From the IMG/VR virus record IMGVR_UViG_2660238580_000002: 64,000 bases of DNA; one strand, 5' to 3'. The notes under the pieces were generated by a model. The model made no database searches, had not been told where the DNA came from, and worked only from the letters and a program-made list of their open reading frames with translations. The position numbers and the translations under genes are program-made. Positions 1,285 to 61,314 of the stretch are shown here, piece by piece. Positions within the stretch are counted from its first letter, which is position 1. Each line of letters begins with the position of its first letter. This DNA is from a virus (Duplodnaviria > Heunggongvirae > Uroviricota > Caudoviricetes).

Positions 1285-1345
1285 AATTCACAGGTGTTTT
1301 TTCCCATCCTGTGGTTTCCTTGGCGTTTTCGGTAATGACTCCAAC

Positions 1346-1849: not shown

Positions 1850-2043
1850 CCAACGCCATTCATGGCCATATCAATGATTTTCTGGTGCGTACCGGGTTGA
1901 GAAGCGGTGTAAGTGAACTGCAGTTGCCATGTTTTACGGCAGTGAGAGCAGAGATAGCGCTGATGTCCGGCGGTGCTTTTGCCGTTACGCACCACCCCGT
2001 CAGTAGCTGAACAGGAGGGACAGCTGATAGAAACAGAAGCCAC
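1768..2043 (-). CDS. insA: IS1 InsA transposition regulator
   Basis: 91-aa ORF with zinc-finger CPSC...CSHC, IS1 InsA. Confidence 0.9.
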
Positions 2044-2846
2044 TGGAGCACCTCAAAAACACCATCATACACTAAATCAGTAAGTTGGCAGCATCACCGC
2101 GTTTTCTAGGTTTTTTCAGATAGTTGCATTTTTTAAAAAGCATCCTAAGTTCGATCTCAGTGTCTATCTGGGGCCTATTTATGTCCCATATATGCCCCAA
2201 AAAAAACTCCCCAACAGATAAGTAGTTTTTTCATGGATTTATGCGTAAAATCAAGAACGGCTGGAAATCATTCAATACTCACACTATCGAAAAATTTACC
2301 AGCCAACCGCAGCACGTTCTTGCATAAGGCGTGTCTGCGGTTTTTCAACTATTCAGATACATCACTCCCATCACATTCATTCCTCCGCATCAAAGGCATA
2401 TAGGCTATATCACCTTGATATTTTTATTTTTCAGATAAAAACTGTTATCTATGTATACTTTTAAACCCAATCCGTGTAGAGTCTCTGCATAAGATAGTTT
2501 GCAGTTGCCGCTTCAGCTTGCGCCATAAACCGCCTGATTTTTGCTGCCACCTGTTAGCATTCCTGTATACCTGAAACGACAATGTTTATCTACGAACTTT
2601 AAGAACACCCAAGATAAAAATTGTCAACTATATCATATATAACACATTACTAATTCGAGGCTATATGAACAGCATACTGATAATCACATCTCTCCTTATC
2701 ATATTCAGCATTTTTAGTCATGCCCTAATAAAATTAGGGATTGGCATATCCAATAACCCAGACAAAACCGATGTATAAGTCAACATATCCTGAATCAGAC
2801 ATACAATATCGCAATGAAAATCAATAATATTTTAAGGAATATCTTC

Positions 2847-4084: not shown

Positions 4085-4660
4085 CTACGGCAGTGCTGGC
4101 CATTCAATATCCTGTGCAGTTGACGTATCAACACGGTTCAGCAATACCCGATACTTTTTCCATGCTTCCAGCAACGAGATTTCTTCCTCCGTTGCAATTT
4201 CCAGATCTGCAGCATCCTGAAGCGGCGCAATATGCTCACTGGCTACCTGCATCAGGCTGTTTTTTGTTTCTTCCGCCTCCCGGATCCGGAACAGTTTTTC
4301 TGCTTCCGTATCCTTCACCCAGGCTGTGCCGTTCCACTTCTGATATTCCCCTCCCGGCGATAACCAGGTAACATTTTCCGGTAACGGACCGAGTTCAGAA
4401 ATAAATAACGCGTCGCCGGAAGCCACGTCATAAACCGTTTTACCCCGATGATCTTCAACGAGATGCCACGATGCCTCATCACTGTTGAAAACAGCCACGA
4501 AGCCTGCCGGAATATCTGGCGGTGCAATATCGATACTGTTTGCTGGCAGACCTGTATGAGGCGGAATATATGCGTCACCTTCACCAATAAATTCATTAGT
4601 TCCGGCCAGCAGATTATAAATTTTTATGGTCCGTGGTTGTTCACTCATTCTGAATGCCAT
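4085..4660 (-). CDS. tfa: tail fiber assembly protein Tfa
   Basis: 191 aa starting [24 protein letters not shown], lambda Tfa-like. Confidence 0.9.
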
Positions 4661-8413: not shown

Positions 8414-11815
<3,402 letters not shown>

Positions 11816-20157: not shown

Positions 20158-20946
20158 TTACGCCAGTTGTACGGACACGAACGCATCAGGGTCAGCCAGC
20201 AGCATCAGCGGTGCTGACTGAATCATGGTGAACTCACGCGCCGGATCGCCGGTGGTCACCCAGTTTTTCGGGTAACGGGCAGAGGCGTTAATGCCTTCGC
20301 GCTGTGCGTCCGCATCCTGAATGCAGCCATAGGTGCGCAGACCGCGTGCCTGAGTGTTCCCCAGCACCATCGTGTTGTCCGGCAGGAAGTTCTTTTTGAC
20401 GCCGTTTTCCACGTACTGTCCGGAATACACGACGATGGCCACATCGCCATACATCCCCTTATAGGACACCGCTTTGCCCAGGTCTTTCACCGCTGTCTCC
20501 AGCTCGGAATTAGAGCCACGACGGGTATCCAGCTTCTCCTTGACGGCTTTGAAGGAACGGAACAGCGCCCAGCCTTTCGGATCGAACACGATGATATTCA
20601 CCACACCGCTGGCGTTCAGCGCGTAGGCTTCGATATCGTCGGTCGGGTCATACGTGGACTTGTCACGCTTGCTCCACTCCGTGCCGCCGGACTGCGTGAT
20701 GTTATTCTCCTCACTGCGGCCCATATCCACCTCAACCGGATCGAAGGCTTCACCGGTCATGGTGTATTTGCCCTTAAGCACGGCAGAAACTGCCTGCATC
20801 TCTTCGACCTGAGCAATGGCCAGCTCTTCGTCACGCATGTTCTGCATGATGATGCGACGGCGGCGGTAAGCCGGGTCCGCCAGATTCTGCGGATCTTCAT
20901 CCGGCAGGCGACGCAGGGTCATCTGCGGATTCACTTCATGCTTCGG
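20158..20946 (-). pseudogene. E: major capsid protein E, 3' fragment (codons ~82-341) cut off from its 5' part by island insertion
   Basis: Reads PKHEVNPQMTLRRLPDEDPQ...PDAFVSVQLA with no start codon; in-frame stop immediately upstream of PKH. Confidence 0.92.
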
Positions 20947-20948
20947 CT
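20939..20948. repeat. 10-bp direct repeat TGCTTCGGCT (island junction, putative att core)
   Basis: Identical 10-mer at 33376-33385; lies in E codons Lys-Pro-Lys-His. Confidence 0.8.
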
Positions 20949-21082
20949 ACATGAGTCAAATATGAAAGGATGTGAATGATTTGATTACGTTTTAGCTATA
21001 GAATTGAAATGGAAAATCCTTGAATGCAATACAACGTGCAATACATGGATGAAAACCATCACTCATTTAACAAGAGGAATCT

Positions 21083-21988
21083 ATGCGCTCACCCAACAGA
21101 ATGCATGAACGCTCAACATTTTATAAGTATATGTCGTTGAATACCGCGAAGATTGTTCTTGATTCATGCAGCCTTAGATGGAGTTCTCCGGTCCTATTTA
21201 ATGACCCTTTTGATGTTCCAAGAGAAGTTATGCCTGGTATTAACGAAATTAATATTGGCAAAGCTTTAGCCCGCAAGTTAATAGCGGAGTTGATTACCCC
21301 CAGAGAAGACATACAAAATTTAAACCCTAGAATTAGAACAATGCTAAGTGATTTCCAAAAGTCATTTCCTTTAGGCATACCCGCAGGATTAATTGAAAGA
21401 TTTCAAGAAATGGTAAACATTCCACCAGTTGGGATTGGCGCTCCTGCGGCAATACAAGAAATGAAAGATGTCTGGCGAGGAATGCTTAATAACAGAAGGA
21501 TTTTGTGTTTATCTGAGAGCCCTATAATCACTCCTATGTGGAATCACTATGCCGATAAATATAAAGGTATAGTTATCGAATTTGATTGTGTAGACTTTCT
21601 GGATAGCGCTTGGTTAATAGCCAAACCTATGAAATACACAGATAAAATGCCTCTAACTCACACTGCTGAAGGGATGGCCGAGTTGCTTTTCATGCCAGAC
21701 AATAAGTCAATTGAATATATCAATAATGAGATAATATTCATAAAAACAGAAGAATGGGCATATGAAAGAGAGTGGAGAATTTCAACCTACGCTAGGCCAA
21801 ATAGCACTGGTCAATATAGCGACTTAAAATTTCACCCTTTTGAGTTAAAATCTGTAATACTTGGTCCTCTTTTTGATGCCAGCGAGTTCGATGAAGTCGC
21901 ATCACTAGTTAAGATGTATCCAAGAGCGAAATTATTTAAAAGTTCATTTGGGAACGACAGAAAAATATCCATAGTACCACTACCTTAA
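21083..21988 (+). CDS. DUF2971-family protein
   Basis: 301 aa; N-terminal FYKYMSLNTAKIVLDSCSLRWSSPVLFNDPFD signature; GAGGA RBS upstream. Confidence 0.65.
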   Translation: MRSPNRMHERSTFYKYMSLNTAKIVLDSCSLRWSSPVLFNDPFDVPREVMPGINEINIGKALARKLIAELITPREDIQNLNPRIRTMLSDFQKSFPLGIPAGLIERFQEMVNIPPVGIGAPAAIQEMKDVWRGMLNNRRILCLSESPIITPMWNHYADKYKGIVIEFDCVDFLDSAWLIAKPMKYTDKMPLTHTAEGMAELLFMPDNKSIEYINNEIIFIKTEEWAYEREWRISTYARPNSTGQYSDLKFHPFELKSVILGPLFDASEFDEVASLVKMYPRAKLFKSSFGNDRKISIVPLP

Positions 21989-22094
21989 AAGGTCAAATGC
22001 TTTTGACAAATAAAATCTATCGCCAGTTTTACTGGCGACTTTTAAGCAACAAAGAACCACCTAAGCACTCTTCCTACCTATGGTTTCATTTGTT

Positions 22095-22646
22095 TTAACT
22101 TCGCTGATTATCCTTGATATACCTTTCAGCCATATCTGGAATGTTATCTGAGATCTGGTAAGCTCGAATAAATGCTTTACTGACCTCCATCTTAATGAAG
22201 TCCTGATACCGTTTTTCCATGCCAGGAAACTGTCGACAGATCGCAAGTGGAAGACTATCAATGATTGCTCCAACTTCCCCAGTTAATTTCGACAAGGCAT
22301 AAGTCGCAAATGCAGTGTCAATTACCTCACCTGTTTCGCTGGCATTCTTCAGTTCCTGTGCGTCGGCCTGCGCACGCGTAAGTCGATGGCGTTCGTACTC
22401 AATAGTCCCTGGCTGGAGATCTGCCTCGCTGGCCTGGCGCAGTTCTTCAACCTCCCGGCGCAGCTTTTCGTTCTCAATTTCAGCATCCCTTTCGGCATAC
22501 CATTTTATGACGGCGGCAGAGTCATAAAGCACCTCATTACCCTTGTCACCGCCTCGCAGAACGGGCATTCCCTGCTCCTGCTAGTTCTGAATGGTACGGA
22601 TACTCGCACCGAAAATGTCAGCCAGCTGCTTTTTGTTGGCTTCCAT
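22095..22646 (-). pseudogene. terminase small subunit Nu1-like gene with in-frame amber codon at codon 22
   Basis: MEANKKQLADIFGASIRTIQN-TAG-QEQGMPVL...; first ~100 aa near-identical to prophage Nu1, C-terminal ~80 aa divergent; TAG at 22581-22583 where helper has TGG. Confidence 0.8.
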
Positions 22647-22699
22647 TGTTCATTCCACGGACAAAACCAGAGAAAGGAAACGACAGAGGCCAAAAAGCC

Positions 22700-22860
22700 T
22701 GTTTTTAGCACCTGTCGTTTCCTTTCTTTTTAGGGGATGTTTTTAATAAAAACATTAAGTTACGGCGAAGAAGAACGGAAACGCCTTAAACAGGAAAATT
22801 TTCACAAATAGCGAAAACCCGCGCGCCTGACGCCCCGTAGCCTGTCAGATCGCCGGAAAG
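22700..22860 (-). other. island cos-like region (cosB-like, variant cosN 22824-22835, partial cosQ-side)
   Basis: Aligns base-by-base with prophage cos (39600-39790); 5 of 12 cosN positions differ (GGGCGTCAGGCG vs GGGCGGCGACCT). Confidence 0.7.
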
Positions 22861-22891
22861 GACCCGCCAGCCAGAGCGGGCCCTAATTTCA

Positions 22892-23275
22892 TCAACCAAT
22901 CAGCTTATAGCGACCATCCCGTGCATTGCGGCGTACACGCTCAATCTTGAGGCATAGCGCCGCATCTGGCTTTTTTGGGACAGGTACGCGGCAATATTCA
23001 GAAGCGCGAGGAATATTATTTATCCAGTCGATCACTTCACTTAAATACCAGGCCTTACGCCCTTCCGTAACCTGCACACGCTCCGGGAACTCTCCACTAG
23101 CCTCAAGGTTTAGCAGTGTACGCCGACTCAGGGTTGTAATTTCCATCACCTGATTCATATCAACAAGGCGCTCGCTTAAACACATTTTGTCAGCGATAGC
23201 TTTTAATTCCTCTACAGCTGGATTCGGGTACATCATTTCGGCAATTGGCTTAAGGTCATTGTAATCATTCTGCAT
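22892..23275 (-). CDS. AlpA/excisionase-family HTH protein
   Basis: 127-aa ORF; C-terminal half ITTLSRRTLLNLEASGEFPERVQVTEGRKAWYLSEVIDWI resembles AlpA-type HTH; true start may be internal. Confidence 0.5.
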   Translation of the reverse strand: MQNDYNDLKPIAEMMYPNPAVEELKAIADKMCLSERLVDMNQVMEITTLSRRTLLNLEASGEFPERVQVTEGRKAWYLSEVIDWINNIPRASEYCRVPVPKKPDAALCLKIERVRRNARDGRYKLIG

Positions 23276-23286
23276 TGTATCCCCCT

Positions 23287-23628
23287 TTACACACGAGCCA
23301 GCGGCTGAACAGAAATACCTGAGCCAACAAACGCTGCAATCTTTACTGACAGTTCTTTTACAGACTCAGGCCAGTTCAGAGCATCAACATTTAAGACACC
23401 TGTCTTATAGACCTGAGCCCGTGTTTTTTTCGCGGTGTCGATTTGTACAGCGGAAACATAAACCGCTTTACCTACGCTCGAACCATCCCATACCACCAGT
23501 GCACCTGTTGCATCTTCCTGCATCAGTGGCGTAAATGCAGGAATTACCCCTTTATTAGCTGAAAATATCCCCAGCGTAGTCACCAGTGCTTCAGTGCCAG
23601 CCATGAGTTCAGTGTAATGAGTAGCCAT
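23287..23628 (-). CDS. head decoration protein D homolog (island-encoded)
   Basis: 113 aa; shares PA-TPLM...VAWDG/VVWDG...YK-G...WPE...AF-G with lambda gpD. Confidence 0.6.
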   Translation of the reverse strand: MATHYTELMAGTEALVTTLGIFSANKGVIPAFTPLMQEDATGALVVWDGSSVGKAVYVSAVQIDTAKKTRAQVYKTGVLNVDALNWPESVKELSVKIAAFVGSGISVQPLARV

Positions 23629-23637
23629 TGCTCCCCC

Positions 23638-24678
23638 TTAGCCAATGCGAACGGTAACAAAACGATTGATGCGGGCCGGTATTGGCTGTGGTGCTGAATG
23701 TGTCTGCACATATTCAATAGCCGGATCACCAGGTACAATATAGTTTTTCGGTGCAAGTTCGGCTTTAGTCAGCCCCATTCGGATTAGCTCCGGATCCTGA
23801 ATACCGCCATAGGCGACAATCCCCTGAAGAGCCGTATTGCCAAGCACCATCAAATCAGGATCAAGGAAATGTTTTTCTGTTCCGTCCTCGTCGGTATAAC
23901 GCCCGCTGTAAACAACAATCGCAACATCGCCCATATACCCTTTAAAACTCACCGAATCACCAAGGTCTTTAAGGGCCGTTTCCAGTTCGGAATTAGAACC
24001 ACGACGGGTATCCAAAGCCTCTTTTATCGCTCTGAATGAACGGTATTTCTTCCATACATTACCACCCATAATGATGATATTAGTGACGCCCTCACTAAAT
24101 TCTGCGTAGCTCTCAATATCATCATTTGGATCAAAAGTTTCTTTATCCTTACTTGACCACTCAGTACCGCCAGACTGAGTGATGATATTTTGTGGTTTTA
24201 TATTCCAGTCCAGCTCATAACGTTCAATACCATCGCCCTCAATGATATTTTTCCCCGTTGTGATTGCCTGAACAGCAAGCCATTCAATACGTGCACGAAT
24301 AGCTTTAGCTTGATTTACAATCGCCTGTTTAACTTTAATATTACGCGCCCCAAAAGCATTGTATTGCTCAGGTGATACACCAGCAGGGCGCACAGCTAAC
24401 TTATTTGGATCAATGCTGCTTTTCGGCTTCATATAGCCTGGACGAATTGTTTTTGATTCGTACCCTTCGTCACGTGAAACTTTACTACCCACCATAGGAG
24501 AACAAAACGCTGCAATTGGGATATTTGGATCGTCGATTGTATCAAGAATAATATCGCGCGATTCAAACATTACCGAGCGAGTAAAAAACAAACTGGTAAA
24601 CAACGCATTTAGTTGTTTTTGTACATCTACAGCATTAACCACCTGTACAAGCTGGGTAGGCGAATATAAATCAACCAT
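23638..24678 (-). CDS. major capsid protein E homolog (island-encoded, diverged)
   Basis: 347 aa from MVDLYSPTQL (AAAGAGGA RBS); C-terminus ITQSGGTEWS...DTRRGSNSELETA...GDVAIVVYSG aligns with lambda gpE. Confidence 0.8.
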   Translation of the reverse strand: MVDLYSPTQLVQVVNAVDVQKQLNALFTSLFFTRSVMFESRDIILDTIDDPNIPIAAFCSPMVGSKVSRDEGYESKTIRPGYMKPKSSIDPNKLAVRPAGVSPEQYNAFGARNIKVKQAIVNQAKAIRARIEWLAVQAITTGKNIIEGDGIERYELDWNIKPQNIITQSGGTEWSSKDKETFDPNDDIESYAEFSEGVTNIIIMGGNVWKKYRSFRAIKEALDTRRGSNSELETALKDLGDSVSFKGYMGDVAIVVYSGRYTDEDGTEKHFLDPDLMVLGNTALQGIVAYGGIQDPELIRMGLTKAELAPKNYIVPGDPAIEYVQTHSAPQPIPARINRFVTVRIG

Positions 24679-24963
24679 ACACATCCTCTTTGCATTCATT
24701 AAAAATAATTGTGGATATATGCTATCACCAATATTTGTCATGCGAATACATGCAACCGAGTGCAATGTTGTATAAAGTTTTGGGATGACAACTTCAGCGC
24801 GGATAATTAGTGTTAATATATTCACTCCCTTTGGTCGGGATTTATGTAGCATGCCGGAAAATTTATTTTTTCCGGCCTTTTTTATTGGCAATATTTAAAA
24901 CGGAATATCATCTCCCCATTGCTCATTATCTCCCACTGGTGGATGGCTTCCTTGCTGATCTGC

Positions 24964-25344
24964 CTATTGTTTTGCTCTGTTCAGTGCGTCAGTAGCCTGA
25001 CCCTGTTGACCTTTTTTGCCGCCCGGTCGCACCGTTCGCGCACTGATTACGCTGTCTGCGATAACCTGCCAGCCCTGCCGCGTTTCACCGTTCTGTCCAG
25101 TCCACTGGCTCACCTGCATGTTACCCGCCACGCTCAGGAGTTCGCCTTTGTGATGCTTTGCCAGCGCATCGGCTTGTCTGCCAAACGCCAGCACAGATAA
25201 CCACATCGTCGCCGTTCCGTCATCTGCCTGGCTGCATGGCAAAGATACCGCCATCCGTGCCAGTGTCATGGGTGTTCCCTTGCTGGTATGTTTTACCTGT
25301 GGGTCGTCCACCAGCCGCCCGTAAGCTGCTATTTGCGCCGTCAT
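24964..25344 (-). CDS. single-stranded DNA-binding protein (OB-fold, SSB-like)
   Basis: 126 aa with SSB-like pattern GRLVDDPQV...WLSVLAFGRQAD...KGELLSVAGNMQVSQW. Confidence 0.6.
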   Translation of the reverse strand: MTAQIAAYGRLVDDPQVKHTSKGTPMTLARMAVSLPCSQADDGTATMWLSVLAFGRQADALAKHHKGELLSVAGNMQVSQWTGQNGETRQGWQVIADSVISARTVRPGGKKGQQGQATDALNRAKQ

Positions 25345-25355
25345 GCTGCCTGCTC

Positions 25356-25598
25356 TCAGGACTTAATATTGATGGTTGTCACTTCCTCCGCTTCGGCAAT
25401 CTCCCGTTCGGTCAGCGTGGCAAAGTTTGCAGCCGCCGTTGTCATGAATGCGCTTATCAGTTCGGGATGTGCTTTCGCGTATCCTTCCCCGGCGTTGCGG
25501 TCTATTGCCTTAATCGCCACCCTTAGCCAGTGTTCAGCCATATCAAGGGCGCGGTAATGTGGCTTTATATGTTTGTTCAGTTTTCCTGATGTGTGCAT
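25356..25598 (-). CDS. hypothetical protein
   Basis: 80-aa ORF immediately downstream of iteron region. Confidence 0.4.
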   Translation of the reverse strand: MHTSGKLNKHIKPHYRALDMAEHWLRVAIKAIDRNAGEGYAKAHPELISAFMTTAAANFATLTEREIAEAEEVTTINIKS

Positions 25599-25643
25599 TT
25601 TTATTTTTACCCCCTCGTTTAAAAAGTTTTTTGTGCACCACCA

Positions 25644-25876
25644 CCTTGTCTACCTTGTCTACCTGATTAGTTATCAGGCCAGTAATGGCGCGGGTTTCAG
25701 AGAGGTAGACAGCCCCAAATAGCTGTCTACCTCATCTCTACCCGTCTCCTTACCTGTCTACAAAAATGGGTAGATAAGGTAGATAACAGGTAGACAGTGA
25801 AAAATAGTTATCTACCTGCATTAATACATTGAAATAAAAGTATTTTATTTCAGTCAGGTAGACAAGGTAGATAACC
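25644..25876. repeat. iteron cluster (GGTAGACA/GGTAGATA and complement TGTCTACC), putative island replication origin
   Basis: More than 10 copies of an 8-11 bp motif in both orientations, AT-rich, directly upstream of primase gene. Confidence 0.75.
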
Positions 25877-25887
25877 ATTGCCATTTT

Positions 25888-27639
25888 TTATAAAAACGCA
25901 TCGCAATCATCAGTAGTCGTTGCGTTGGTCTGAGTGACTCCCTTAACTTTTCGCGTAATATATTCATATCCGTAAACTTTCGCCGCTGACCTCATAGCCT
26001 TTCCGAACTCATTCACGCTCAAACATTTCCCCTTTCCTGTATATGCCATGAAGGCCATATAGACACGGTAAAGGCTGTTTCTGGTCGTGTACTTCACGGT
26101 GTCACCACCACCGCCCATCATTAGCCCACGAGCTTCCTCCAGAAACTCCAGCGCCGCGCAAAGCTCAACAACCGGATCCGTTTGCTGCTTTATTGCCAGA
26201 GCTTCATCACCGTCACGCTGTTCCAGTAATAAAGCCCGTGCCTTTTCAGGGTCAGCAAAATTAGCCAGCAAGCGGCGGATAATTACGGGGATTTCTGCCG
26301 CTATCTTTTCCGGTAATTCCTTGTCTTTTTCGTCCTCCCTTACAATGTTGTCGAACCGGAAAATCACCCGACGGCGTGACACACCTCCGGCCCGTTCGGT
26401 AAAGATCATCGGGTCGTTATTGGTTGCCAGTACCACCGCCCTTATTATCGTCGTGAATCGCTTCTCATATTTCGGGTTAATTTCAACGGGATCGCCTCCC
26501 GTGATTTTCTTGATGCCCGTGCCTTCCCCCGTATATTTCGGCTGATCGGCAAGGACGATAAGACGACTCCCGACAACCTGCGCGCGCCCTCCTGCATCAT
26601 CGAGTGATGTCATCTCTGCGCTTACGGTGTTCTGTTTGCCAGCAAGCAGGGTGGCAATATGAGTAAATGTGCTCTTTCCGCTTCCCCCGTCTCCGGTGGC
26701 CTCAATGAACATCTGCCAGTCGTAGCGGTTCGCCATAATCATGTATAACGCGGCACATATACGCATCATCTTGCGCGGGTCTTTTCCTGCAGCATGTTCA
26801 AGCCATTTATGGAAATTTGGCGCATTATCGCGGATGTTTTCCCCTGCTACTGGTGGCGTGTACTCAATACCATTGTGCGTGGTGCTCCAGTGCTCCGGCG
26901 AGTGCGGAGAAAATTCCCCCGTTTTCAGATTAAGCACACCATTAGTGAACGGTAGCAAATCACCGGACGGCTCCCCCATGGGGGCGGCAATAACTTTTAA
27001 CGCTTCCACGGCGTTATTGATTACGCGCTTGCTGAACGTGGCCCTGTGCTCTGAATAGATCGCCACCATTTCGCGGCTCAGCTCCATTGTGCTGACCGGA
27101 CACCATACCCCGCCGCGCCATACGTGGACGATTTCACTTTCTGCATGAACACAAACACCATCAAAGCGATCGGCAAGTAGTTGTGCCCGCTCACTGTCTG
27201 CCATCTGTGAAAGTTGCGCCTTTTGCTTCGTCGGAAGATTAAGCACCAGGCTTTCCCCACGCTCGCATTCCTCTTTGAGTCGCGGCAACTGGTCGGATAA
27301 ATCCACTGGGCTGGTGTCAGTAATCCCCGCGTATTCGTGTACGGTCTTCACTCCAGCCACAGCCAGTAACGTAACAATCTGCGTCATGCTGTGCTCTGTG
27401 ATATGTCCTGCGCGGTAAACACGCACACACTGACGATCTTCATCAATGATCCGGTAATCGGTGATGTTTTTCAGTTGCTCATCAGCCAACACGACAGGCG
27501 GCACATCGTCGGCGGCAATATGTTTACCCGCCCATTCCTGCCACTCTTTCGCATGGCTCCACGCATCACTACCTGCAAAGATGATTACCTCTGTCAGTCT
27601 GTCGCGTGGCTGTTTTTTTAAGTTCGGTGCCAGTTTCAT
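25888..27639 (-). CDS. P4-family primase/helicase (Pri-Rep-like replication protein)
   Basis: 583 aa; Walker A GDGGSGKST in C-terminal NTPase domain; adjacent to iterons. Confidence 0.75.
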   Translation of the reverse strand: MKLAPNLKKQPRDRLTEVIIFAGSDAWSHAKEWQEWAGKHIAADDVPPVVLADEQLKNITDYRIIDEDRQCVRVYRAGHITEHSMTQIVTLLAVAGVKTVHEYAGITDTSPVDLSDQLPRLKEECERGESLVLNLPTKQKAQLSQMADSERAQLLADRFDGVCVHAESEIVHVWRGGVWCPVSTMELSREMVAIYSEHRATFSKRVINNAVEALKVIAAPMGEPSGDLLPFTNGVLNLKTGEFSPHSPEHWSTTHNGIEYTPPVAGENIRDNAPNFHKWLEHAAGKDPRKMMRICAALYMIMANRYDWQMFIEATGDGGSGKSTFTHIATLLAGKQNTVSAEMTSLDDAGGRAQVVGSRLIVLADQPKYTGEGTGIKKITGGDPVEINPKYEKRFTTIIRAVVLATNNDPMIFTERAGGVSRRRVIFRFDNIVREDEKDKELPEKIAAEIPVIIRRLLANFADPEKARALLLEQRDGDEALAIKQQTDPVVELCAALEFLEEARGLMMGGGGDTVKYTTRNSLYRVYMAFMAYTGKGKCLSVNEFGKAMRSAAKVYGYEYITRKVKGVTQTNATTTDDCDAFL

Positions 27640-27935
27640 TTTTTGCCCCTGAATGCGTTAATCATGCTTTTCATTTTCTGGATGTTTCCCCGCGCTTTTT
27701 CCCTGCTGATGGGCTTACTGCGGGGTGCGGCATATACCAGGGAAAAATCACGCCGGAACTGATAAACAGGCATCACGCAGTCATAGCTATACCCCTCACG
27801 ACGGTAAGTGATGCGCCGTTCTGCCACGCCTTTAATCGTTACCGTGCCGCCGTATTTATCGCGGTAAATATCGCCGTTCATAAATTCAGGCCGAGCGGGG
27901 CCGCTGGCAATAAAGCCAGAATTTTTCATTTCCAT
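27636..27935 (-). CDS. hypothetical protein
   Basis: 99-aa ORF, stop overlaps primase start. Confidence 0.4.
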   Translation of the reverse strand: MEMKNSGFIASGPARPEFMNGDIYRDKYGGTVTIKGVAERRITYRREGYSYDCVMPVYQFRRDFSLVYAAPRSKPISREKARGNIQKMKSMINAFRGKK

Positions 27936-27952
27936 ATTATTTATTCCTCGAC

Positions 27953-28174
27953 TTAACTCGACTTATTTGATAGCAGGGCACTATTTATTGCGTCATTGAG
28001 TTTTTCTGCTGCTTCATCAATAAGTGACAACAGGCCATAAGCAATATTTGCATCTTCATTGTCATTTATGCAATCAAGCCACATATTTAATATTGCTTTT
28101 GCTGAATTATTTAAAGTTAATGAACTTTCTGCACATGCTAACAATTTAAAAAAGACTTCCCGTTCTGTATTCAT
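27953..28174 (-). CDS. hypothetical protein
   Basis: 73-aa ORF in island early region. Confidence 0.35.
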   Translation of the reverse strand: MNTEREVFFKLLACAESSLTLNNSAKAILNMWLDCINDNEDANIAYGLLSLIDEAAEKLNDAINSALLSNKSS

Positions 28175-28366
28175 TTAATCCCCCACCAGCTTACTTTCTT
28201 CCTCAATCAAAAAACTAGCGACACTTCCCGAAAGACGCGCCAGTAGGCTCGCCAGTGCGGATATATCAGCATCTGTAATTTTGTTCGGGTATACCTCAAG
28301 AAGGCGGCAAATAATTTCTGTCTGGTGCGCACGTTCAGCGGCTTCGTGTAATGTGATTTCCTGCAT
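28175..28366 (-). CDS. hypothetical protein
   Basis: 63-aa ORF in island early region. Confidence 0.35.
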   Translation of the reverse strand: MQEITLHEAAERAHQTEIICRLLEVYPNKITDADISALASLLARLSGSVASFLIEEESKLVGD

Positions 28367-28600
28367 TAATGCACCTCTTTTAATTCATACACTGCTGAAA
28401 TAATGACTTGTGATAAGCCATATTCTGATGATTCGCTTCTCACCGCAGCAATAGCCGTCTGAACATTAACAGCCTTCACGTTCTGAGCGATACCAATTGT
28501 GTGGCCTAGTGGGTTAACCGCACGAGCAAATACACGGAAGGTTTTAAGCACGGCATACTGAACCGCCCCGGGTTTCCTGGAGAGTGTTTTATCTGTGAAC

Positions 28601-29491
28601 TCAGGCTGCCAGATCATCGTTTCCGATGGAAGCATAATAAGCTTTTTCTGCTTCTGCCGGAGGAGTATGGCCCAGCCTTTCCAGCAATCGTCGATTGTTA
28701 TACCAGTCCACCCACGTGAGTGTGGCCAGTTCCACTTCTGCACGGTTTTTCCAGCTCTTACGGTGTATTACCTCCGCTTTGTAAAGACCATTGATGCTCT
28801 CCGCCATCGCGTTGTCATACGAGTCGCCTGTACTTCCTGTTGATGCCAGTAATCCGGCTTCCTTAAGCCGCTGTGTGTAGGCCAGCGATACATACTGAGA
28901 ACCTTTATCACTGTGATGGACCGTGCCGGACGGTCGACGGGCCCATAACGCCTGCTCCAGTGCATCCAGCACGAATGTCGTTTCCATGGACGATGAGACC
29001 CGCCACCCCACGATGTATCCGGCAAACACATCAATGATGAACGCCACATAGACGAAGCCCCGCCATGTGCTGACGTAAGTAAAATCAGCCACCCACAGCT
29101 GGTCAGGTCGTTCTGCCACGAACTGACGGTTTACGCGGTCGCCTGCGGCAACGGCTTTCCGGCTGATGGTCGTACGGACCTTTTTACCCCGGAGAACACC
29201 GGCAAGTCCCATAACCGCCATGAGACGTGCCACAGTGCATCTGGCCACTCTGATACCTTCCCGTAACAACTGACGCCAGACTTTACGCACACCGTATACC
29301 TTGTGATTTTCATCGTATACGCGCTGTATCTCTTTCTTCAGCCAGTCATCGCGCTGCGCACGGGCACTGCGTTTATCCGGATGATGTCGCTGTTGCTGAC
29401 AGTGGTAATACGTTGACGGGGCAATATGCAGTTCGCTGCATAGCGGTCCGACCCCGTACTGCTCACGCAGCTTATCCAGCAGTGGCATCAT
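28601..29491 (-). CDS. IS629 transposase OrfB (DDE integrase core)
   Basis: 296 aa, identical to copy at 61767-62657. Confidence 0.9.
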
Positions 29492-29814
29492 TTTTTCCAG
29501 AGGCGGTCGAACTCCGCCTTCGCAAAATAAGCGGAAGCCTGGCGAAGGATATCGTTACTGCGGCGCAGTTCACGATTTTCACGTTCCAGCTCTTTCAGAC
29601 GCTGACGTTCAGCGGTGGTGAGCCCTCCATCACCGCCCCCGGTATCCCGCTCATGCTGGCGAACCCAGACACGCAGAGTCTCCGGCGTACAGCCAATCTT
29701 TGGAGCAATGGAACAAATTGTCGCCCATTGTGAGTCATATTCGCTCTGACTTTCCAGAACCATACGGACTGCCCGTTGACGGACTTCGGGGGAAAAACGA
29801 GTATTTTTAGTCAT
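29488..29814 (-). CDS. IS629 transposase OrfA (HTH)
   Basis: 108 aa [30 protein letters not shown]. Confidence 0.9.
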
Positions 29815-29868
29815 CCTGTTTACCTCTTTCTCAGGAAGTTTAGTCTCCAGGATTCCCGGGGCGGTTCA

Positions 29869-30060
29869 TACCTCCTGACGAATACGGGCGGCAAATATCA
29901 TCACGCAGCCAGTTGGGGATTGTTGGCGGGCTTCCTGTTCGCTGGCGGCCTCGATGTGTATTACGCGTGGTTGTGCGGTGCTCAGGGCGATAAAACGCCA
30001 GATGTATTTATTCAGGTTGTGCGGGTCCCGCCCTTGCGGGTGTGTGGTATGATTTCTCAT
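29869..30060 (-). CDS. Icd-like cell division inhibitor family protein, 3' end truncated by IS629
   Basis: YIWRFIALSTAQPRVIHIEAASEQEARQQS...IFAARI resembles Icd-like small proteins; reading past the IS predicts loss of only 3 codons. Confidence 0.45.
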
Positions 30061-30198
30061 AGCTATCTCGATACTGTTGCTATCGTTGGTGGTTAGAAGC
30101 CCGTTGGTGTTCCTAGCGCCTTCGGGCTTTGCTTTTTTAAGTGCCTCCGTGTTAAGGTGGTCACCTAACAGTAAAAAGGCTAATTCAATAGGTGGTCA

Positions 30199-30391
30199 CT
30201 TGTCAACAATCAAACGCGATAAAAGTCCTAAGGGTGATGGGCAATCTCCACAATTCAGAATGCGAATTTCTCCAGAGCTAAAAGAGCAATTCGACAAAGA
30301 AGCGCAGAGCGACGGCATAAGCCTAGCCAACTGGCTTAAAGAATTAGGGCGCAAAGAGCTGCTACGGCGCGGTATTGAACCAAAAGGATAA
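30199..30391 (+). CDS. ribbon-helix-helix (Arc/CopG-like) DNA-binding protein
   Basis: C-terminal ISPELKEQFDKEAQSDGISLANWLKELGRKELL RHH pattern; start uncertain (TTG at 30199 with AGGTGG SD, or ATG at 30260). Confidence 0.5.
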
Positions 30392-30418
30392 GAGTAATTG
30401 AAGTCAAGGAGCTAACAC

Positions 30419-30775
30419 ATGAAATACGAATTCTTCGCAACAAGTAGCAGTAGTTTGGATGTATACATAGTCACTGTATCAAACGATTCTAGCTCGCTAA
30501 TCATGACTTGCAATTGTCCAGCAGGAAGTAAAGGTATTCTATGTAGACACCGTAAAGCTTTAATTACCGGAAAAATCCGTGGTATATTCACTCCCCCAAG
30601 AAGGAATAATCCCGAAAAGTTACAAGAAGCTATAAATTTAATAACCACATATGGCATAGATAAAACATTAAAGTTGTACACTGATGAGTTAGAACGAGCA
30701 GAACAGACTTGGATAAGTGTTCGCGATAATTTGAGAGCAATGATAAACGCTCTTGTTGAACCACCTAAATATTGA
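30419..30775 (+). CDS. small SWIM-type zinc-finger protein
   Basis: 118 aa with CNCPAGSKGILCRH (CxC...CxH); AAGGAG RBS upstream. Confidence 0.5.
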   Translation: MKYEFFATSSSSLDVYIVTVSNDSSSLIMTCNCPAGSKGILCRHRKALITGKIRGIFTPPRRNNPEKLQEAINLITTYGIDKTLKLYTDELERAEQTWISVRDNLRAMINALVEPPKY

Positions 30776-30906
30776 ACTGTTCACATTGCCTATCAGTCGA
30801 CAACCTCGTATTCTGATTAAGGCTAACTATATACTCACATTGGCGACCAATTCTGGTCGCCTTTATCCACCATTTTTATAACATCATAGATTAAAAGTGT
30901 TAATCC

Positions 30907-31737
30907 TTACCCCCTGAATGGAATTGATGAGGATTTAATTTCCACTGAACTAAATCCTTTTGAATCCAAGAACATTTTTATACCAGCCTCAATGAAATCA
31001 TAATCGTTTGTCGGGCCAATAGTAATACTTTTAATTGGTAACTTCCTATGATCTTTATTACCAATGATGATATAAGGGATGACACCATTATTATTTATTC
31101 TGAATTGCACATCTGGTATTAGTATGCGCGGAGTAAATACCAATCTAAATTCATTTTCTTCGATAAAACTAGGATGTTTAAAAAATGGGATGTATTTAGA
31201 TATAAATTGATACGTAGAGGCCATTGTTACAAAATGATCATTCTTTTCTTTAATATTAATACCATTACAAGAAAAAAACGCCCCCAACTCCTTACTCATC
31301 TTAGTAACATCGTTATTATTTGAATATATAACATCATGTGCAACACAATTTAAATAAATATTTTGAGAAAAGCTCACAAGTTCATCCGCATCAAACTCAA
31401 TGCAAACACCCTGTTTATTTCCGTAACCTCTCCACTGACTTAACTTATCGTTTTCCTTACAAAAAGAGATGCTATAAACATGTTTATCAATCCCTTTTTC
31501 TTTTTGTAACCTCCCTTTCTCATACATGTCAAGAGACTTGAGCAAAATAGTTTTCTTATCTTTTGGAATGATATTGTCATCAACTATTTTAATTGTATTT
31601 CGAAAGCATTCACATCCATGGTTAGACTCCTCTTTATCATTTAAGAAATATATGTTTGTAGCCCATAAAGAATTAGAGTCTAATATACCTTTCAAACCAA
31701 AAAGATCTGTATAATGAAATATAGCCACAATGCCCAC
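30907..31737 (-). CDS. DUF2971-like protein
   Basis: 276 aa; N-terminal IFHYTDLFGLKGILDSNSLWATNIYFLNDKEE resembles DUF2971 signature. Confidence 0.5.
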   Translation of the reverse strand: MGIVAIFHYTDLFGLKGILDSNSLWATNIYFLNDKEESNHGCECFRNTIKIVDDNIIPKDKKTILLKSLDMYEKGRLQKEKGIDKHVYSISFCKENDKLSQWRGYGNKQGVCIEFDADELVSFSQNIYLNCVAHDVIYSNNNDVTKMSKELGAFFSCNGINIKEKNDHFVTMASTYQFISKYIPFFKHPSFIEENEFRLVFTPRILIPDVQFRINNNGVIPYIIIGNKDHRKLPIKSITIGPTNDYDFIEAGIKMFLDSKGFSSVEIKSSSIPFRG

Positions 31738-31744
31738 CTAATAG

Positions 31745-31975
31745 TTAAGTTGTTTCCCACTCACCTCGAATCCATGCCTGCACTTCTGAAAGACGATATG
31801 CAACAGCAGTGGAACCAATCTTGATCCGCTTAGGAAATTTTCCTTCCTTCTCCAGCTTCCAGCGTGTGCTGTTCGCAAGAGTGGTTAGCTCCCGACATTC
31901 TTTCTCACGGATCATTCGGTCAATGTTAGGAATGTACTCCAGACCCTTTTTATCAACAATTGCCATTTTTTTCAT
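31745..31975 (-). CDS. alpA: AlpA-family transcriptional regulator
   Basis: 76 aa; TTLANSTRWKLEKEGKFPKRIKIGSTAVAYRLSEVQAWI AlpA-type HTH; immediately downstream of int. Confidence 0.75.
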   Translation of the reverse strand: MKKMAIVDKKGLEYIPNIDRMIREKECRELTTLANSTRWKLEKEGKFPKRIKIGSTAVAYRLSEVQAWIRGEWETT

Positions 31976-31976
31976 G

Positions 31977-33212
31977 TTAACCAGCCTTTTGTTTGAGGAT
32001 TGTCACTTTTGAATCAGCACCTGCGATGCTATTGAGATATGTAGTCCAGAGTTCCAGAGCATCCAGTTTTTTAGCCATAAACTTACTCCGGTTGTAAACA
32101 CCTGCCACGCCAGGTAGCGCATGGCCTAACAGTTGTTCTACTACATAAAATTCAACACCGAGATCACTTAGATGAGTAGATAGCGTTCTTCTAAGGTCGT
32201 GTAGTGACCATTGTTTTTCATGGCCCAAACGTTTACCGATTTTCCCCCCAATCTTGCTTACGCTTTCTCTAATTCGCAGACTTCCCAGCACATAACCAGT
32301 ATGTTTTGTCTCTTCGTGAACATCCGTTACCCACTGTCGTAGAATTTCAGGTACTGGTCTGACGATTTCAACACCGGTTTTTGAGTGTTCTTTTGGTACA
32401 GTCCAAACCCAACTTTCTAGATCCCATTCGCTCCATTCTGATAATCGGGCTTCACTCATTCGACATCCAAATACTGTACAAAGCACAAACATTTTTCGCG
32501 TGTATTCAGACATTAGTTTTAAATCAGGCTCGACAAAAATTGCCTTCCAGAGCTGGCCCAGTTCGGCTTCATCCAGAACCCGATCCCGCTTACCTGCAAT
32601 CTGCCCCACATCACTCATGCGCAAATCCTTTAAAGCATCACACGTCGCGTACTGGCGTACCCGACAAAAACGAAGAGCTAATTTAGTGTCAGAAAAAACA
32701 TACGCCGCCATAACTGGTGCATTACGTTTAATTCGGTCAAAACAGTCCAGCCATTCATATAGGTGAGTGTCATTTACGGGCAAATGACCGATATAGGGAA
32801 AGATATGCTTTCGAAATCTGCCAAGCGTTACAGCATGAGTTTTACGACGCACCTTACAGTAATTTTCATACCAGTAATTTAGTGCATCCTCCACTGTGAC
32901 CGGCTTTAAGCGTTCTTCAGCCTGAATCTTAATCTGGATACGCGGATCACGTTTGTCAGCCAACCAACCACGGCACTCGTCGCGCTTTTCTCTTGCCTGT
33001 TTGAGTGACATATCAGGATATTTACCCAACGTTAGCCAGACCGGAGCAGCCCGGCCACCTGCTAACCTGTAGAAGAAAACAAAGCTCACAGCCCCCTTAG
33101 TACTCACACGAATAGAAAGCCCCTTTCCATCAGCAATGGTGATCTGCTTTTCTCTGGGTTTCCCCAGATATCCTTTAAGCGCTTTGTCGCTCAGTTTGTT
33201 CTCGCCAGCCAT
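31977..33212 (-). CDS. int: P4-type tyrosine integrase
   Basis: Start MAGENKL; DUF4102-like arm domain; catalytic residues R (CRMSEARL), HDLRRT, Y (VAGVYNRS); adjacent to junction repeat. Confidence 0.9.
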   Translation of the reverse strand: MAGENKLSDKALKGYLGKPREKQITIADGKGLSIRVSTKGAVSFVFFYRLAGGRAAPVWLTLGKYPDMSLKQAREKRDECRGWLADKRDPRIQIKIQAEERLKPVTVEDALNYWYENYCKVRRKTHAVTLGRFRKHIFPYIGHLPVNDTHLYEWLDCFDRIKRNAPVMAAYVFSDTKLALRFCRVRQYATCDALKDLRMSDVGQIAGKRDRVLDEAELGQLWKAIFVEPDLKLMSEYTRKMFVLCTVFGCRMSEARLSEWSEWDLESWVWTVPKEHSKTGVEIVRPVPEILRQWVTDVHEETKHTGYVLGSLRIRESVSKIGGKIGKRLGHEKQWSLHDLRRTLSTHLSDLGVEFYVVEQLLGHALPGVAGVYNRSKFMAKKLDALELWTTYLNSIAGADSKVTILKQKAG

Positions 33213-33344
33213 TTTTAGCCCCAAAAAGCAATACAAGCTGCAATACAGAGATGATTGCAACACACAGATAACGAGGAAAATCCAGTGAAAGCGCCAGATA
33301 ATCTTATTCTTTATTATCAAAGAATTAAGTGTAAAAACCAGCAA

Positions 33345-33620
33345 CTACACGAAAGCCTCAGAAAGCCATGCTAAGTGCTTCGGCTTGACATATCCCGGCG
33401 TAAATTCAGAGGTGGAGCCGCCACGGGAACGGATAACCTCACCGGAAACAATCGGCGAAACGTACAGCGCCATGTTTACCAGTCCCGGAATTTGTGAGAG
33501 ATAGACTTTCTCCGTGGTGAAGGGATAGCTCTCACGGAAAAAGAGACACAGAAACAGCGGATCAAACTTAAATTTCTGCTCATTTGCCGCCAGCAGTTGG
33601 GCGGTTGTGTACATCGACAT
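33345..33620 (-). pseudogene. E: major capsid protein E, 5' fragment (codons 1-~83) fused to 9 island-derived codons
   Basis: MSMYTTAQLLAANEQKFKFDPLFL...EFTPGYVKPKH then LAWLSEAFV-stop from island sequence. Confidence 0.92.
33376..33385. repeat. 10-bp direct repeat TGCTTCGGCT (island junction, putative att core)
   Basis: Identical to 20939-20948; overlaps E codons Lys-Pro-Lys-His of the 5' fragment. Confidence 0.8.
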
Positions 33621-51685: not shown

Positions 51686-53238
51686 GAAAAATCCCCCAGA
51701 GAATTGTCTGGGGACATTTTAGAATGGTTCAAAGGGGACATTACAGCTTGGTGTTAACAATAGCCTGCTTCTCCGTGCCTTTCGGCACGTAAGAGGCTAA
51801 CCTACATGTGTCTAGCATGAAATTGGCCTCAGATTAATGTTAAGCGTCTTGCAGGACGCGTAATGTTAACTGGGGCTTTTCTCTATCTGCCGTTGGTGTC
51901 CATGCCCGAGGCAGATAGCCTCAAGCACCCGCAGTCATTCTACTTAACTAAGATTTCCCCGCAAACCGTTTTTGTCCAGCACAGTAAATATCCAACTAAA
52001 CCAATGGAGTTCGCTGTATTTACCGCCAGTATTCAATGCACATGACCGCCATGAACACCCCTAAAAAAAGGGCATTTATATATCCAAATATTAATATCAA
52101 AACATCAACTTTTTCCATATACCTTGCTGTGAAGATGATGGGCATACATGATGCGAACAACCAGAACGCAACAAACAAAAACTGCAATGCGTTTTTCATT
52201 ATTCCTCCTACAATCAATGTGCAATTACATTTAAACACACCTCAATTTGGCCGGACATATAAATATCTAAACCAGAAAAAATCACTTACATAGCGTTACA
52301 AACTCTTTAGTCTAAAGGTTCATCGTAAAACATTCCCCATACTTATCAGTCCGTTCCGCGCCAGGTAGCTCATTGCCTTATCTGGCAACCTGTAATCAGG
52401 TTTCCGCTTTTTCAGTTGGCTGGTCGTTTAACCGACATAGTTAATCCATTAATCTAGTTGCCGGATGTTGGTGGATTTTCGCGTTTTAGTTGTTCATAAA
52501 AGTGCACAGCTTTAACCAGTTCTTCTGATGTAACTGGGACTGGTGAGGCAGTGAATAAGGCCTGAATTTGATAGTTCGGCCTGTCGTTACAATCCTCTTT
52601 TTTCGGTACATATTTCCAGTCACCAGACCACTACTTCCCCTGAAAGTCCGTAACGCCTTTTTTCACGTAGCGATATCGCCATGCCACTGGTTTTGCTTGC
52701 CCCGCCGTTTCATGCCCTTCCTGATAATTAATCTCGCTCATTCATCGCCCCACTCATCACAATATGCTTCGACCGGAGTTTTTCCCGCTTCATAGTCATC
52801 ACGCTAGGATTCGACATCAGCAGCACTTCCACCGCGTAACTCACCATAGTCCATTAATAGTTCATCCCGCTCTTCAAAACTGATGTTATATTTAGCTGAA
52901 CAAAAATCAGCCACTTTGTTCTTCCTCATCGTCTTTTATTTCGTGGTATGAGTAATTGCAGTAGTTAAAGAAAATTTCTTATGCTCCGTCATGAATTTCC
53001 GTAAGCGTAAACTGACCGCCGTATGTAGCCATCAGACGAGAATTGGTAACTTAGACGCCCATCTGATATAGACGGACATCTAAGTATGGAATTACAGGAC
53101 TGGCGAAAAGAACCTCGTAAAAACTATTCGAATGAATTCAAACTTCGTAGACTGGCCCCCTGAATCTCCAGACAACCAATATCACTTAAATAAGTGATAG
53201 TCTTAATACTAGTTTTTAGACTAGTCATTGGAGAGCAG

Positions 53239-53604: not shown

Positions 53605-54467
53605 GCTTAGTCAGCCGTTGTCTCCGGGTGTCGCGTGCGCAGTTGCACGTAATTCTCAGACGAACCGATGACTGGAAAGATGGTCGCCGCAGCCGTCACT
53701 CAGATGATACGGATGTGCTTCTCCGTATACACCATGTTATCGGAGAGCTGCCCACGTATGGTTATCGTCGGGTATGGGCGCTGCTTCGCAGACAGGCCGA
53801 ACTTGATGGTATGCCTGCGATCAATGCCAAACGTGTTTACCGGATCATGCGACAGAATGCGCTGTTGCTTGAGCGAAAAACCGCTGTACCGCCATCGAAA
53901 CGGGCACATACTGGCAAAGTGGCCGTGAAAGAAAGCAATCAACGATGGTGCTCTGACGGGTTCGAGTTCCGCTGTGATAACGGAGAAAAACTGCGAGTCA
54001 CGTTCGCGCTGGACTGCTGTGACCGTGAGGCACTGCACTGGGCAGTCACTACGGGCGGCTTCGACAGTGAAACAGTACAGGACGTCATGCTGGGAGCGGT
54101 GGAACGCCGCTTCGGCAACGAGCTTCCGGCGTCTCCAGTAGAGTGGCTGACGGATAATGGTTCATGCTACCGGGCTAATGAAACACGGCAGTTTGCCCGG
54201 ATGTTGGGGCTTGAACCGAAGAACACGGCGGTGCGGAGTCCGGAGAGTAACGGCATAGCAGAGAGCTTCGTGAAAACGATAAAGCGTGACTACATCAGTA
54301 TCATGCCTAAACCAGACGGGTTAACGGCAGCAAAGAACCTTGCAGAGGCGTTCGAGCATTATAACGAATGGCATCCGCATAGTGCACTGGGTTATCGCTC
54401 GCCACGGGAATATCTGCGGCAGCAGGCCAGTAATGGGTTAAGTGATAACAGGTGTCTGGAAATATAG
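53562..54467 (+). CDS. insD: IS2 InsD transposase (OrfB)
   Basis: 301 aa with DDE integrase core; overlaps insC. Confidence 0.9.
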
Positions 54468-54843
54468 GGGCAAATCCACTTCGTATGGTGGAACTGGCAT
54501 CACAACCTGGAGCTTGTGTTGCACAGATTGCACGTGAAAATGGCGTCAATGATAATGTTATTTTCAAATGGCTCAGGCTCTGGCAGAACGAAGGGCGTGT
54601 TTCGCGGCGTCTTCCGGTAACGACCTCTTCTGACACTGGCGTTGAATTATTACCTGTAGAAATAACGCCGGATGAGCAGAAAGAACCTGTGGCGGCCATT
54701 GCGCCGTCTTTATCCACTTCCACTCAGACCAGAGTCAGTGCCAGTTCCTGCAAGGTGGAATTCCGTCACGGTAACATGACGCTGGAAAATCCATCGCCAG
54801 AGCTGCTCACAGTGTTGATCCGTGAACTGACCGGGAGGGGAAG

Positions 54844-55194
54844 ATGATCTCACTCCCATCAGGTACCCGTATCTGGCTCGTTGCCGGCGTTACCGATATG
54901 CGTAAATCCTTCAACGGACTGGGAGAACAGGTACAACATGTGCTGAATGATAATCCCTTCTCCGGTCACCTGTTTATCTTCCGTGGCCGACGGGGTGACA
55001 CCGTCAAAATTCTTTGGGCTGATGCTGATGGTCTGTGCCTGTTCACCAAACGCCTGGAGGAAGGCCAGTTTATCTGGCCTGCGGTACGTGACGGCAAGGT
55101 ATCCATTACCCGCTCGCAACTGGCAATGCTCCTCGATAAGCTGGACTGGCGTCAGCCAAAAACATCCAGCCGTAACTCACTGACAATGTTGTAA
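54844..55194 (+). CDS. IS66-family orf2 (TnpB)
   Basis: 116 aa MISLPSGTRIWLVAGVTDMRKSFNGL. Confidence 0.85.
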   Translation: MISLPSGTRIWLVAGVTDMRKSFNGLGEQVQHVLNDNPFSGHLFIFRGRRGDTVKILWADADGLCLFTKRLEEGQFIWPAVRDGKVSITRSQLAMLLDKLDWRQPKTSSRNSLTML

Positions 55195-55224
55195 AAAACT
55201 CCTGACCGCATTATAAAAACGGTC

Positions 55225-61256: not shown

Positions 61257-61314
61257 TTTCTGGTGACGTTTGGCGGTATCAGTTTTACTCCGTGACTGCT
61301 CTGCCGCCCTTTTT
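61257..61314 (+). ncRNA. dicF: DicF small RNA (ftsZ-targeting sRNA)
   Basis: TTTCTGGTGACGTTTGGCGGTATCAGTTTTACTCCGTGACTGCTCTGCCGCCCTTTTT matches DicF from recollection; ends in terminator. Confidence 0.8.

Follow-up and report, generated by a model that had tools for sequence, protein, structure and literature searches.

An IS629 insertion at the overlap of two small genes in an HE-PICI of an Escherichia coli prophage, with likely consequences for the genes downstream

A complete copy of IS629 interrupts a satellite island, itself embedded in the capsid gene of a lambdoid prophage, in the window (the whole stretch of 64,000 nucleotides that was analysed; IMG/VR record IMGVR_UViG_2660238580_000002). 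We are highly confident that this arrangement goes back to a recent and ordinary IS629 transposition into a TAC triplet at the overlap of two genes of an HE-PICI, with the effects on gene expression that are proposed below. In this reading an active-looking IS629 would have moved recently, inside the present E. coli lineage, and its target would have been the TAC triplet at which two translationally linked small genes of an 11capE-type HE-PICI overlap. The transposition would have been ordinary for the IS3 family, with a 3-bp duplication and no other rearrangement. As the IS end begins with TGA, the Icd-like protein is shortened from 67 to 64 amino acids. The neighbouring 61-aa gene is cut off from its ribosome-binding site and would, with its coupling lost as well, be translated at a strongly reduced level. 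Transcription of the replication genes from the satellite promoter would be reduced by polarity, but not necessarily abolished. The event as such is ordinary: a known IS has entered a usual kind of target with the usual duplication. The features of the element are as follows.

28559..29868, minus strand: complete IS629 (IS3 family), exactly 1310 bp, boundaries set by the flanking TAC copies
28556..28558, no strand: left copy of the TAC target-site duplication (GTA on the minus strand), a single TAC in the empty site of relatives
29869..29871, no strand: right copy of the TAC target-site duplication, encoding Val64 (GTA) of the Icd-like protein
29844..29868, minus strand: left inverted repeat of IS629 at the orfA-upstream end, with the terminal TGA as new Icd-like stop
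28559..28583, minus strand: right inverted repeat of IS629, abutting the downstream 61-aa gene
29814..29488, minus strand: orfA, 108 aa, HTH part of the transposase (Pfam HTH_Tnp_1 on the identical gene in a public assembly)
29491..28601, minus strand: orfB, 296 aa, rve/DDE integrase-like catalytic part (rve on the identical gene in a public assembly)
29533..29417, minus strand: ALIL pseudoknot, stimulator of the IS3-family programmed -1 frameshift, at the orfA/orfB overlap

Positions 28556..29871 read TAC, TGAACCGCCCCGGG ... CCCGGGGCGGTTCA, TAC. The terminal inverted repeats, which start with TGAACCGCCCCGGG, match at 23 of 25 positions, and both the length and the imperfect 5'-TG...CA-3' repeats are those of IS629 (about 1310 bp). 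OrfA and OrfB both match the NCBIfam model for IS3-family transposases (E=1e-93 for OrfB). Relative to orfA, orfB is read in the -1 frame, and its ATG shares bases with the stop codon of orfA (ATGA). At this overlap the ALIL element (Rfam RF01497) is matched over its full length (1-117) with 120.2 bits against a gathering score of 50, and a -1 shift on the A-run AAAAAATGATG leads into an open OrfAB fusion of 404 aa. For a comparison with named elements, the entries annotated as 'insertion sequence: IS3 family IS629' in LC567824.1 and LC567828.1 were used with an identity criterion of at least about 95%; the copy in the window is 99.5% identical to them over positions 1..1310. Other E. coli records contain copies that match it at 100%, and one related copy carries the PGAP family label IS1203, an isoform of IS629. 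A preliminary description, made from the sequence of the window, had reported a complete 1310-bp IS629 with a 3-bp TAC duplication. Boundaries, repeats, open reading frames, ALIL and the 99.5% identity all agree with this, and the range of 28556-29871 given there comprises the element and both TAC copies.

The prophage contains a further copy of the same element.

61725..63034, co-oriented with the first copy: second IS629, 100% identical, with its own duplication AGT, 31.9 kb from the first copy

The duplications of both copies (TAC and AGT) are thus 3 bp long, and 3-4 bp are described for IS629 (PMC3271280). As all sequence features are intact and two identical copies fit recent activity, the element looks active. 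In the O157:H7 genomes 62% of the IS629 copies sit in prophage-like elements (PMC3271280). Compared with the IS629 copies in prophages and prophage-like elements of O157:H7 and other STEC strains (Rump et al. 2011, PMC3271280), the copy described here is the same element (1310 bp, 99.5-100% identity) and shares the 3-bp duplication, the preference for prophage-like DNA and the disruption of genes via simple insertion. Annotated IS629 copies also occur in Stx phages, e.g., in LC567824.1. In contrast to the copies of O157:H7 and STEC, the present one resides in a host that is not obviously O157, with human and wastewater isolates as nearest relatives, and at its site, where the Icd-like gene meets the PHROG 3672 gene of an HE-PICI, no IS629 was found in any of 5426 complete E. 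coli genomes. The second copy adjoins the DicF RNA gene (61258..61309) in the early region of the prophage. When its site was searched in other genomes, the rows with 100% coverage were multi-piece composites of different length. Together, the two direct copies form a substrate for the deletion of half of the satellite along with the head and lysis genes of the helper. An IS1 copy is located at 1331..2098 of the window, ORFs resembling the IS66 family (about 131, 116 and 537 aa; assigned from the ORF layout alone) at 54452..56838, an IS009 RNA (Rfam) at 4119..4317 and a sok antitoxin RNA at 51759..51930. The prophage is heavily colonised by IS elements.

How the element came to its present place can be read from genomes in which it is absent. 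A query consisting of the left flank, one TAC and the right flank (1600 bp) was compared with all complete E. coli RefSeq genomes, and 26 of these contained the uninterrupted joined site over all 1600 bp, with a best identity of 99.9%. LST200A, whose island carries neither IS629 nor IS1, is collinear over 8600 bp with the window once the IS and one TAC are taken out, and the alignment has a single mismatch and is free of gaps. A 25.6-kb stretch of WP7-S17-ESBL-04 aligned to the window in three blocks with 99.87-100% identity; one break is located at the IS629 of the window and the other one at an IS1 of the relative's own in the primase gene, and both IS629 flanks are matched at 99.9-100% with nothing lost. 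Among the IS-free relatives compared, no junction other than flank, TAC and flank was found. As the site is contiguous in 26 genomes and without a gap in LST200A, the event was a simple in-place transposition with a 3-bp duplication and without adjacent deletion, which agrees with the insertion in situ that had been proposed. The same comparison bears on the gene that is interrupted.

30060..29866, minus strand: truncated Icd-like gene, 64 aa instead of 67, with the stop codon 29868..29866 supplied by IS629
28544..28555, minus strand: displaced 3' end of the Icd-like gene, TGC CGT GCT TAA (Cys-Arg-Ala-stop), 1313 bp from the rest of the gene

In the window the Icd-like ORF ends with ...RQEV, and the TGA that stops it consists of the three outermost bases of IS629. 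Removal of the IS and one TAC restores an ORF of 67 aa that ends with ...RQEVCRA, and this reconstructed protein is identical to WP_072668404.1 (...ARIRQEVCRA) from the three closest IS-free genomes. The preliminary description had predicted exactly this original end, as well as the loss of three codons through a stop after ...RQEV, and the database protein and the window translation confirm the one and the other. It had also proposed the comparison with IS-less island homologues itself; their pre-insertion sequence is the predicted one, with RQEVCRA at the end, and a differing pre-insertion sequence in homologous islands was looked for and was not found.

The insertion is recent and lineage-specific, as judged from the near-identity of all versions of the locus. 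No IS was present at this site in any of 5426 complete E. coli assemblies. The truncated 64-aa product is on record in GCA_001030405.1, the probable source of the window, in which a stretch of 10.2 kb is 100% identical to the window. The same contig occurs in a second sample, and a metagenome contig whose sequence stops inside IS629 encodes the product as well. With no fewer than two NCBI samples and a metagenome contig carrying the allele, what would be called "this strain" is really "this lineage". Islands without the IS are 99.97-99.99% identical to the island in the window. These near-identical IS-free islands and the identity of the two IS629 copies point to a recent event in one lineage.

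The interrupted island has the following core features.

20939..33385, no strand: island (about 20949..33385) with core repeats, the 10-bp core TGCTTCGGCT at 20939..20948 and 33376..33385
31977..33212, minus strand: int, satellite gene
31745..31975, minus strand: alpA (PF05930)
25888..27639, minus strand: pri (primase), TIGR01613 domain match and Pfam D5_N/DUF5906 on the identical gene

It lies inside a lambda-E-like major capsid gene of the lambdoid prophage, between direct repeats of TGCTTCGGCT and in the orientation of the late operon. Joining of the outer flanks in silico yields an intact gpE of 341 aa, and across the junction the DNA shares 99.6% identity with lambda gene E. Without IS629 the island has a size of about 11.1 kb, within the 10-20 kb of PICIs. 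The minus-strand order is int, alpA and a DUF2971 gene, later the Icd-like operon ending in pri, and then SSB, capsid, decoration, HTH regulator and TerS genes. The primase matches TIGR01613 with E=5.5e-30 and 104.3 bits, just under the curated cutoff of 108.7. Two divergent plus-strand genes, which encode a SWIM protein and an Arc/HicB-like ribbon-helix-helix protein, are situated between the DUF2971 gene and the Icd-like operon. At this position (30200..30775, plus strand), the small Arc/HicB-like ORF and the SWIM zinc-finger gene run divergently from the operon, RefSeq annotates a minus-strand pseudogene over the ribbon-helix-helix ORF, and related islands carry HicB- or YlcI/YnfO-family genes, which marks the position as a variable regulatory slot.

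These sequence features assign the island to a known class, the helper-embedded PICIs (HE-PICIs) of the 11capE type. Eco567.11capE was described at the site E:Phage_cap_E:80 together with 201 similar elements (Mageeney et al. 2023, PMC10111431), and it is the one element for which inducible excision and helper-dependent transfer were shown experimentally (PMC10111431). The island in the window shares with Eco567.11capE the size of 11 kb, the co-oriented int, alpA and pri, an own capsid gene and the integration, at a 10-bp block of identity, into the lambda-E-like capsid gene of a lambdoid prophage. It differs from Eco567.11capE in having the 1.3-kb IS629 before its replication genes. The label of a capsid-forming PICI (cf-PICI) was considered and rejected in favour of an HE-PICI or classical Gram-negative PICI, as portal, protease, TerL and connector genes are missing. 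A sister island in WP7-S17-ESBL-04 (99.97% identical) carries an independent IS1 in its primase gene (10088..10784, corresponding to about 26598..26606 of the window), so that three natural alleles of the island exist: IS-free, with IS1 in pri, and with IS629. The SSB and small-terminase genes (24895..25344 and 22095..22646) are flagged with 'internal stop' by PGAP in near-identical relatives; the SSB gene is intact in two more distant islands. The sequence suggests that this island lineage was already decaying before IS629 arrived.

The loss of three codons is probably functionally neutral for the Icd-like gene, because the lost tail is located outside of the conserved domain and in the most variable part of the family. 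The protein matches the NCBIfam model NF033153 ('host cell division inhibitor Icd-like') with E=7e-20 and 70.8 bits against a cutoff of 25, and the domain (aa 19-62) is fully retained. Across 120 homologues the motif FAARIRQ(E/G)V is conserved and the three to four residues behind it are the most variable part, with tails including CHA, HHVQ, RHVQ, RHA, FHA, SHA, CRA and GL. Many of the homologues are annotated with 30-50 extra N-terminal residues, a stretch which is closed by a stop codon here. The emphasis that the preliminary description had placed on the trim of three codons is misplaced.

The link to Icd of phage P1 comes from a pairwise comparison and the HMM, and the similarity is weak: aa 11-50 of P1 Icd align to aa 18-60 of the Icd-like protein with 42% identity over 43 aa (pairwise E=6e-07), and P1 Icd scores 52.6 bits against NF033153 with the domain at aa 12-51. 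A tblastn search of a phage collection with the Icd-like protein (E<1e-3) retrieved one phage record of 16.5 kb and not P1. For P1 Icd, expression of which is toxic, a minimal active core has been defined experimentally, and 21 C-terminal residues can be removed without loss of activity (PMC11897509). The region shared by both proteins is this published core. Inhibition of cell division through FtsZ is known only for P1 Icd (PMC11897509), and the small-protein family that NCBIfam calls Icd-like is labelled 'transcriptional repressor' by PHROG 6196 and 1743. As the similarity to P1 Icd is modest and the PHROG label conflicts, an Icd-like function of the protein is to be regarded as putative here. 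The gene arrangement can be set beside icd-ant1 of P1 (AF234172). Both have a small ORF of the Icd family whose 3' end overlaps the next gene, by 4 nt in P1 and by 8 nt here, and in the P1 record icd is 'apparently required for expression of ant'. The downstream gene differs, as it encodes an antirepressor in P1 and an uncharacterised 61-aa protein here. A C4-type antisense RNA was, unlike in P1, not detected by Rfam upstream of the present gene pair; a search for P1-like C4 or other regulatory RNAs near the Icd-like gene with Rfam at gathering thresholds gave only the ALIL of IS629 inside the island.

More consequential than the trim is probably the position of the element relative to the next gene, a point missed by the preliminary description: the Shine-Dalgarno sequence of this gene is split off.

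28366..28551, minus strand: 61-aa gene with GTG start, PHROG 3672, WP_000920680.1 in relatives, next in the operon
29870..29876, minus strand: Shine-Dalgarno sequence of the 61-aa gene (AGGAGGT), now separated from it by IS629

The 61-aa protein matches PHROG 3672 with E=6.5e-46 over positions 1-61 of the 61-position profile, and a match that begins with residue 1 speaks for the GTG at 28551 as start codon. All IS-free islands examined have the gene annotated directly after the Icd-like gene, the stop of which it overlaps by 8 nt. Its GTG overlaps the original Icd-like stop (GTGCTTAA); the distance from the gene start to the TAC of the target site is 4 nt and that to the end of IS629 is 7 nt. 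The native junction reads CGTC AGGAGGT ATGCC GTG CTT AA on the coding strand. This succession of AGGAGGT, which lies inside the last Icd-like codons, a spacing of 5 nt and GTGCTTAA is conserved in five IS-free islands that differ elsewhere, and such a layout is the one expected for translational coupling of the two genes. IS629 entered between the Shine-Dalgarno sequence and the GTG, so that AGGAGGT is now 1313 bp away from the start codon. In the window the GTG is preceded by the IS end (...GGGGCGGTTCA / ...CCCGGGGCGGTTCA) and then by GTATGCC, and no comparable Shine-Dalgarno-like motif is present at a useful distance (5-10 nt) before it. As the gene has lost both its own ribosome-binding site and the coupling to translation of the Icd-like gene, we infer that its translation is strongly reduced. 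An in-frame ORF (28743..28366) runs from inside IS629 into the 61-aa gene, and some N-terminally extended product may be made from it. The orphaned AGGAGGT abuts the IS end (29869..29905, minus strand), which creates an ORF of 10 codons (AGGAGGTATGAACC...) that leads into the inverted repeat; with a spacing of about 1 nt, which is too short for efficient initiation, it is probably meaningless.

Behind the 61-aa gene, genes for proteins of 63 and 73 aa, a DUF4222 gene and the gene for the 583-aa primase follow on the same strand, and 1.3 kb of IS DNA now lie between the 5' end of the operon and the four small genes plus primase. Insertions of IS elements inside operons are generally polar. Polarity on the downstream genes is likely here too, which would leave the replication genes with less transcription from the promoter of the satellite itself. 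The genes int, alpA and pri are essential for induction and transfer of PICIs, most genes of which are unidirectional (PMC10111431). The transposase genes of IS629 have the same orientation as the interrupted operon (minus strand). A consensus scan for terminators inside IS629 (minus strand) and one for outward or hybrid promoters at its downstream-facing end found nothing above shuffled expectation, and no TTGACA/TATAAT pair was seen when the right inverted repeat and the adjoining flank were inspected by eye. As these scans found nothing, neither an activation nor a termination by IS629 can be claimed. With co-oriented IS genes and no convincing terminator, downstream transcription is not necessarily abolished, and read-through may keep the genes behind IS629 transcribed. 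In addition, late transcription of the helper is expected to extend, in the same direction, across the embedded satellite (PMC10111431), and this could partly bypass the polarity while the satellite is integrated. A changed expression of the early region through IS629, as already considered in the preliminary description, is plausible, and the 61-aa gene with its split Shine-Dalgarno sequence and the downstream primase operon are likelier places for it than the trimmed codons. As int and alpA are situated upstream of IS629 and are untouched, excision of the satellite, along with repair of the helper capsid gene, should remain possible.

Several other explanations of the locus were weighed against an ordinary transposition with such effects. 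Homologous recombination between IS629 copies could have joined flanks that were originally not contiguous, and the second, identical and co-oriented copy at 61725..63034 provides a substrate for this. The contiguous flanks in the 26 IS-free genomes and in LST200A (8600 bp, one mismatch, no gap), together with the perfect 3-bp duplication at this copy and a different one (AGT) at the other, refute such a rearrangement joint, the probability of which is practically nil. The insertion might instead have happened elsewhere, with the satellite or the composite of prophage and satellite being transferred in when IS629 was already present. The element is mobile in principle (PMC10111431) and the truncated allele exists in more than one public sample; yet the identical IS629 in the same prophage is a ready local donor, the surrounding 25 kb are by segment 99.87-100% identical to the same locus in relatives, which fits vertical descent, and an IS before the replication genes would lower the likelihood of transfer. 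A transfer of this kind appears very improbable.

A role of selection in fixing the insertion, by silencing a costly or toxic satellite operon or by locking the satellite in place and thereby domesticating the composite prophage, is improbable as well. In its favour, the sister island (99.97%) carries an independent IS1 in the primase of the same operon, SSB and TerS genes are flagged with internal stops in the island lineage and P1 Icd is toxic upon expression (PMC11897509). However, the Icd-like ORF is essentially intact, which means that a toxic product would not have been removed, and an otherwise identical IS-free island persists in LST200A. Two insertions in an IS-rich genome also fit neutral decay, all the more as IS629 prefers prophage-like DNA (PMC3271280). 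It is also unlikely that the insertion has no appreciable effect on expression at all, be it through read-through or the late promoter of the helper, or with a 61-aa gene that is dispensable or translated anyway. The absence of a convincing terminator from IS629, the co-oriented late operon of the helper (PMC10111431) and the in-frame ORF leading from IS629 into the 61-aa gene are compatible with this. What speaks against it is the loss of a strong and conserved AGGAGGT, for which the IS end offers no comparable motif 5-10 nt before the GTG. The general polarity of IS insertions in operons points in the same direction. A recent transposition in place, with reduced expression of the 61-aa gene and of the replication genes, therefore is the reading retained here.

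Beyond correct annotation the importance of the insertion is small; it represents routine wear by mobile elements. The locus is a clean and datable example of IS629 activity: the satellite, otherwise identical, exists free of IS elements, with IS1 and with IS629. It also illustrates that an IS can damage the gene after the "trimmed" one more than the trimmed gene itself, by separating a ribosome-binding site from its start codon. A further idea, which we regard as a long shot, is that IS629, by uncoupling the replication and late genes from the intact module of integrase and alpA, may have turned a self-propagating satellite into an element that excises and neither replicates nor spreads, a domesticated excision switch for expression of the helper capsid. 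If this were true, excision would restore the helper capsid gene E, and the sister island, with its independent IS1 in the primase gene, would have taken the same path. For work on HE-PICIs, this copy should be flagged as probably replication-impaired, and the three natural alleles could provide, at no cost, an allelic series with which to test the function of the operon.
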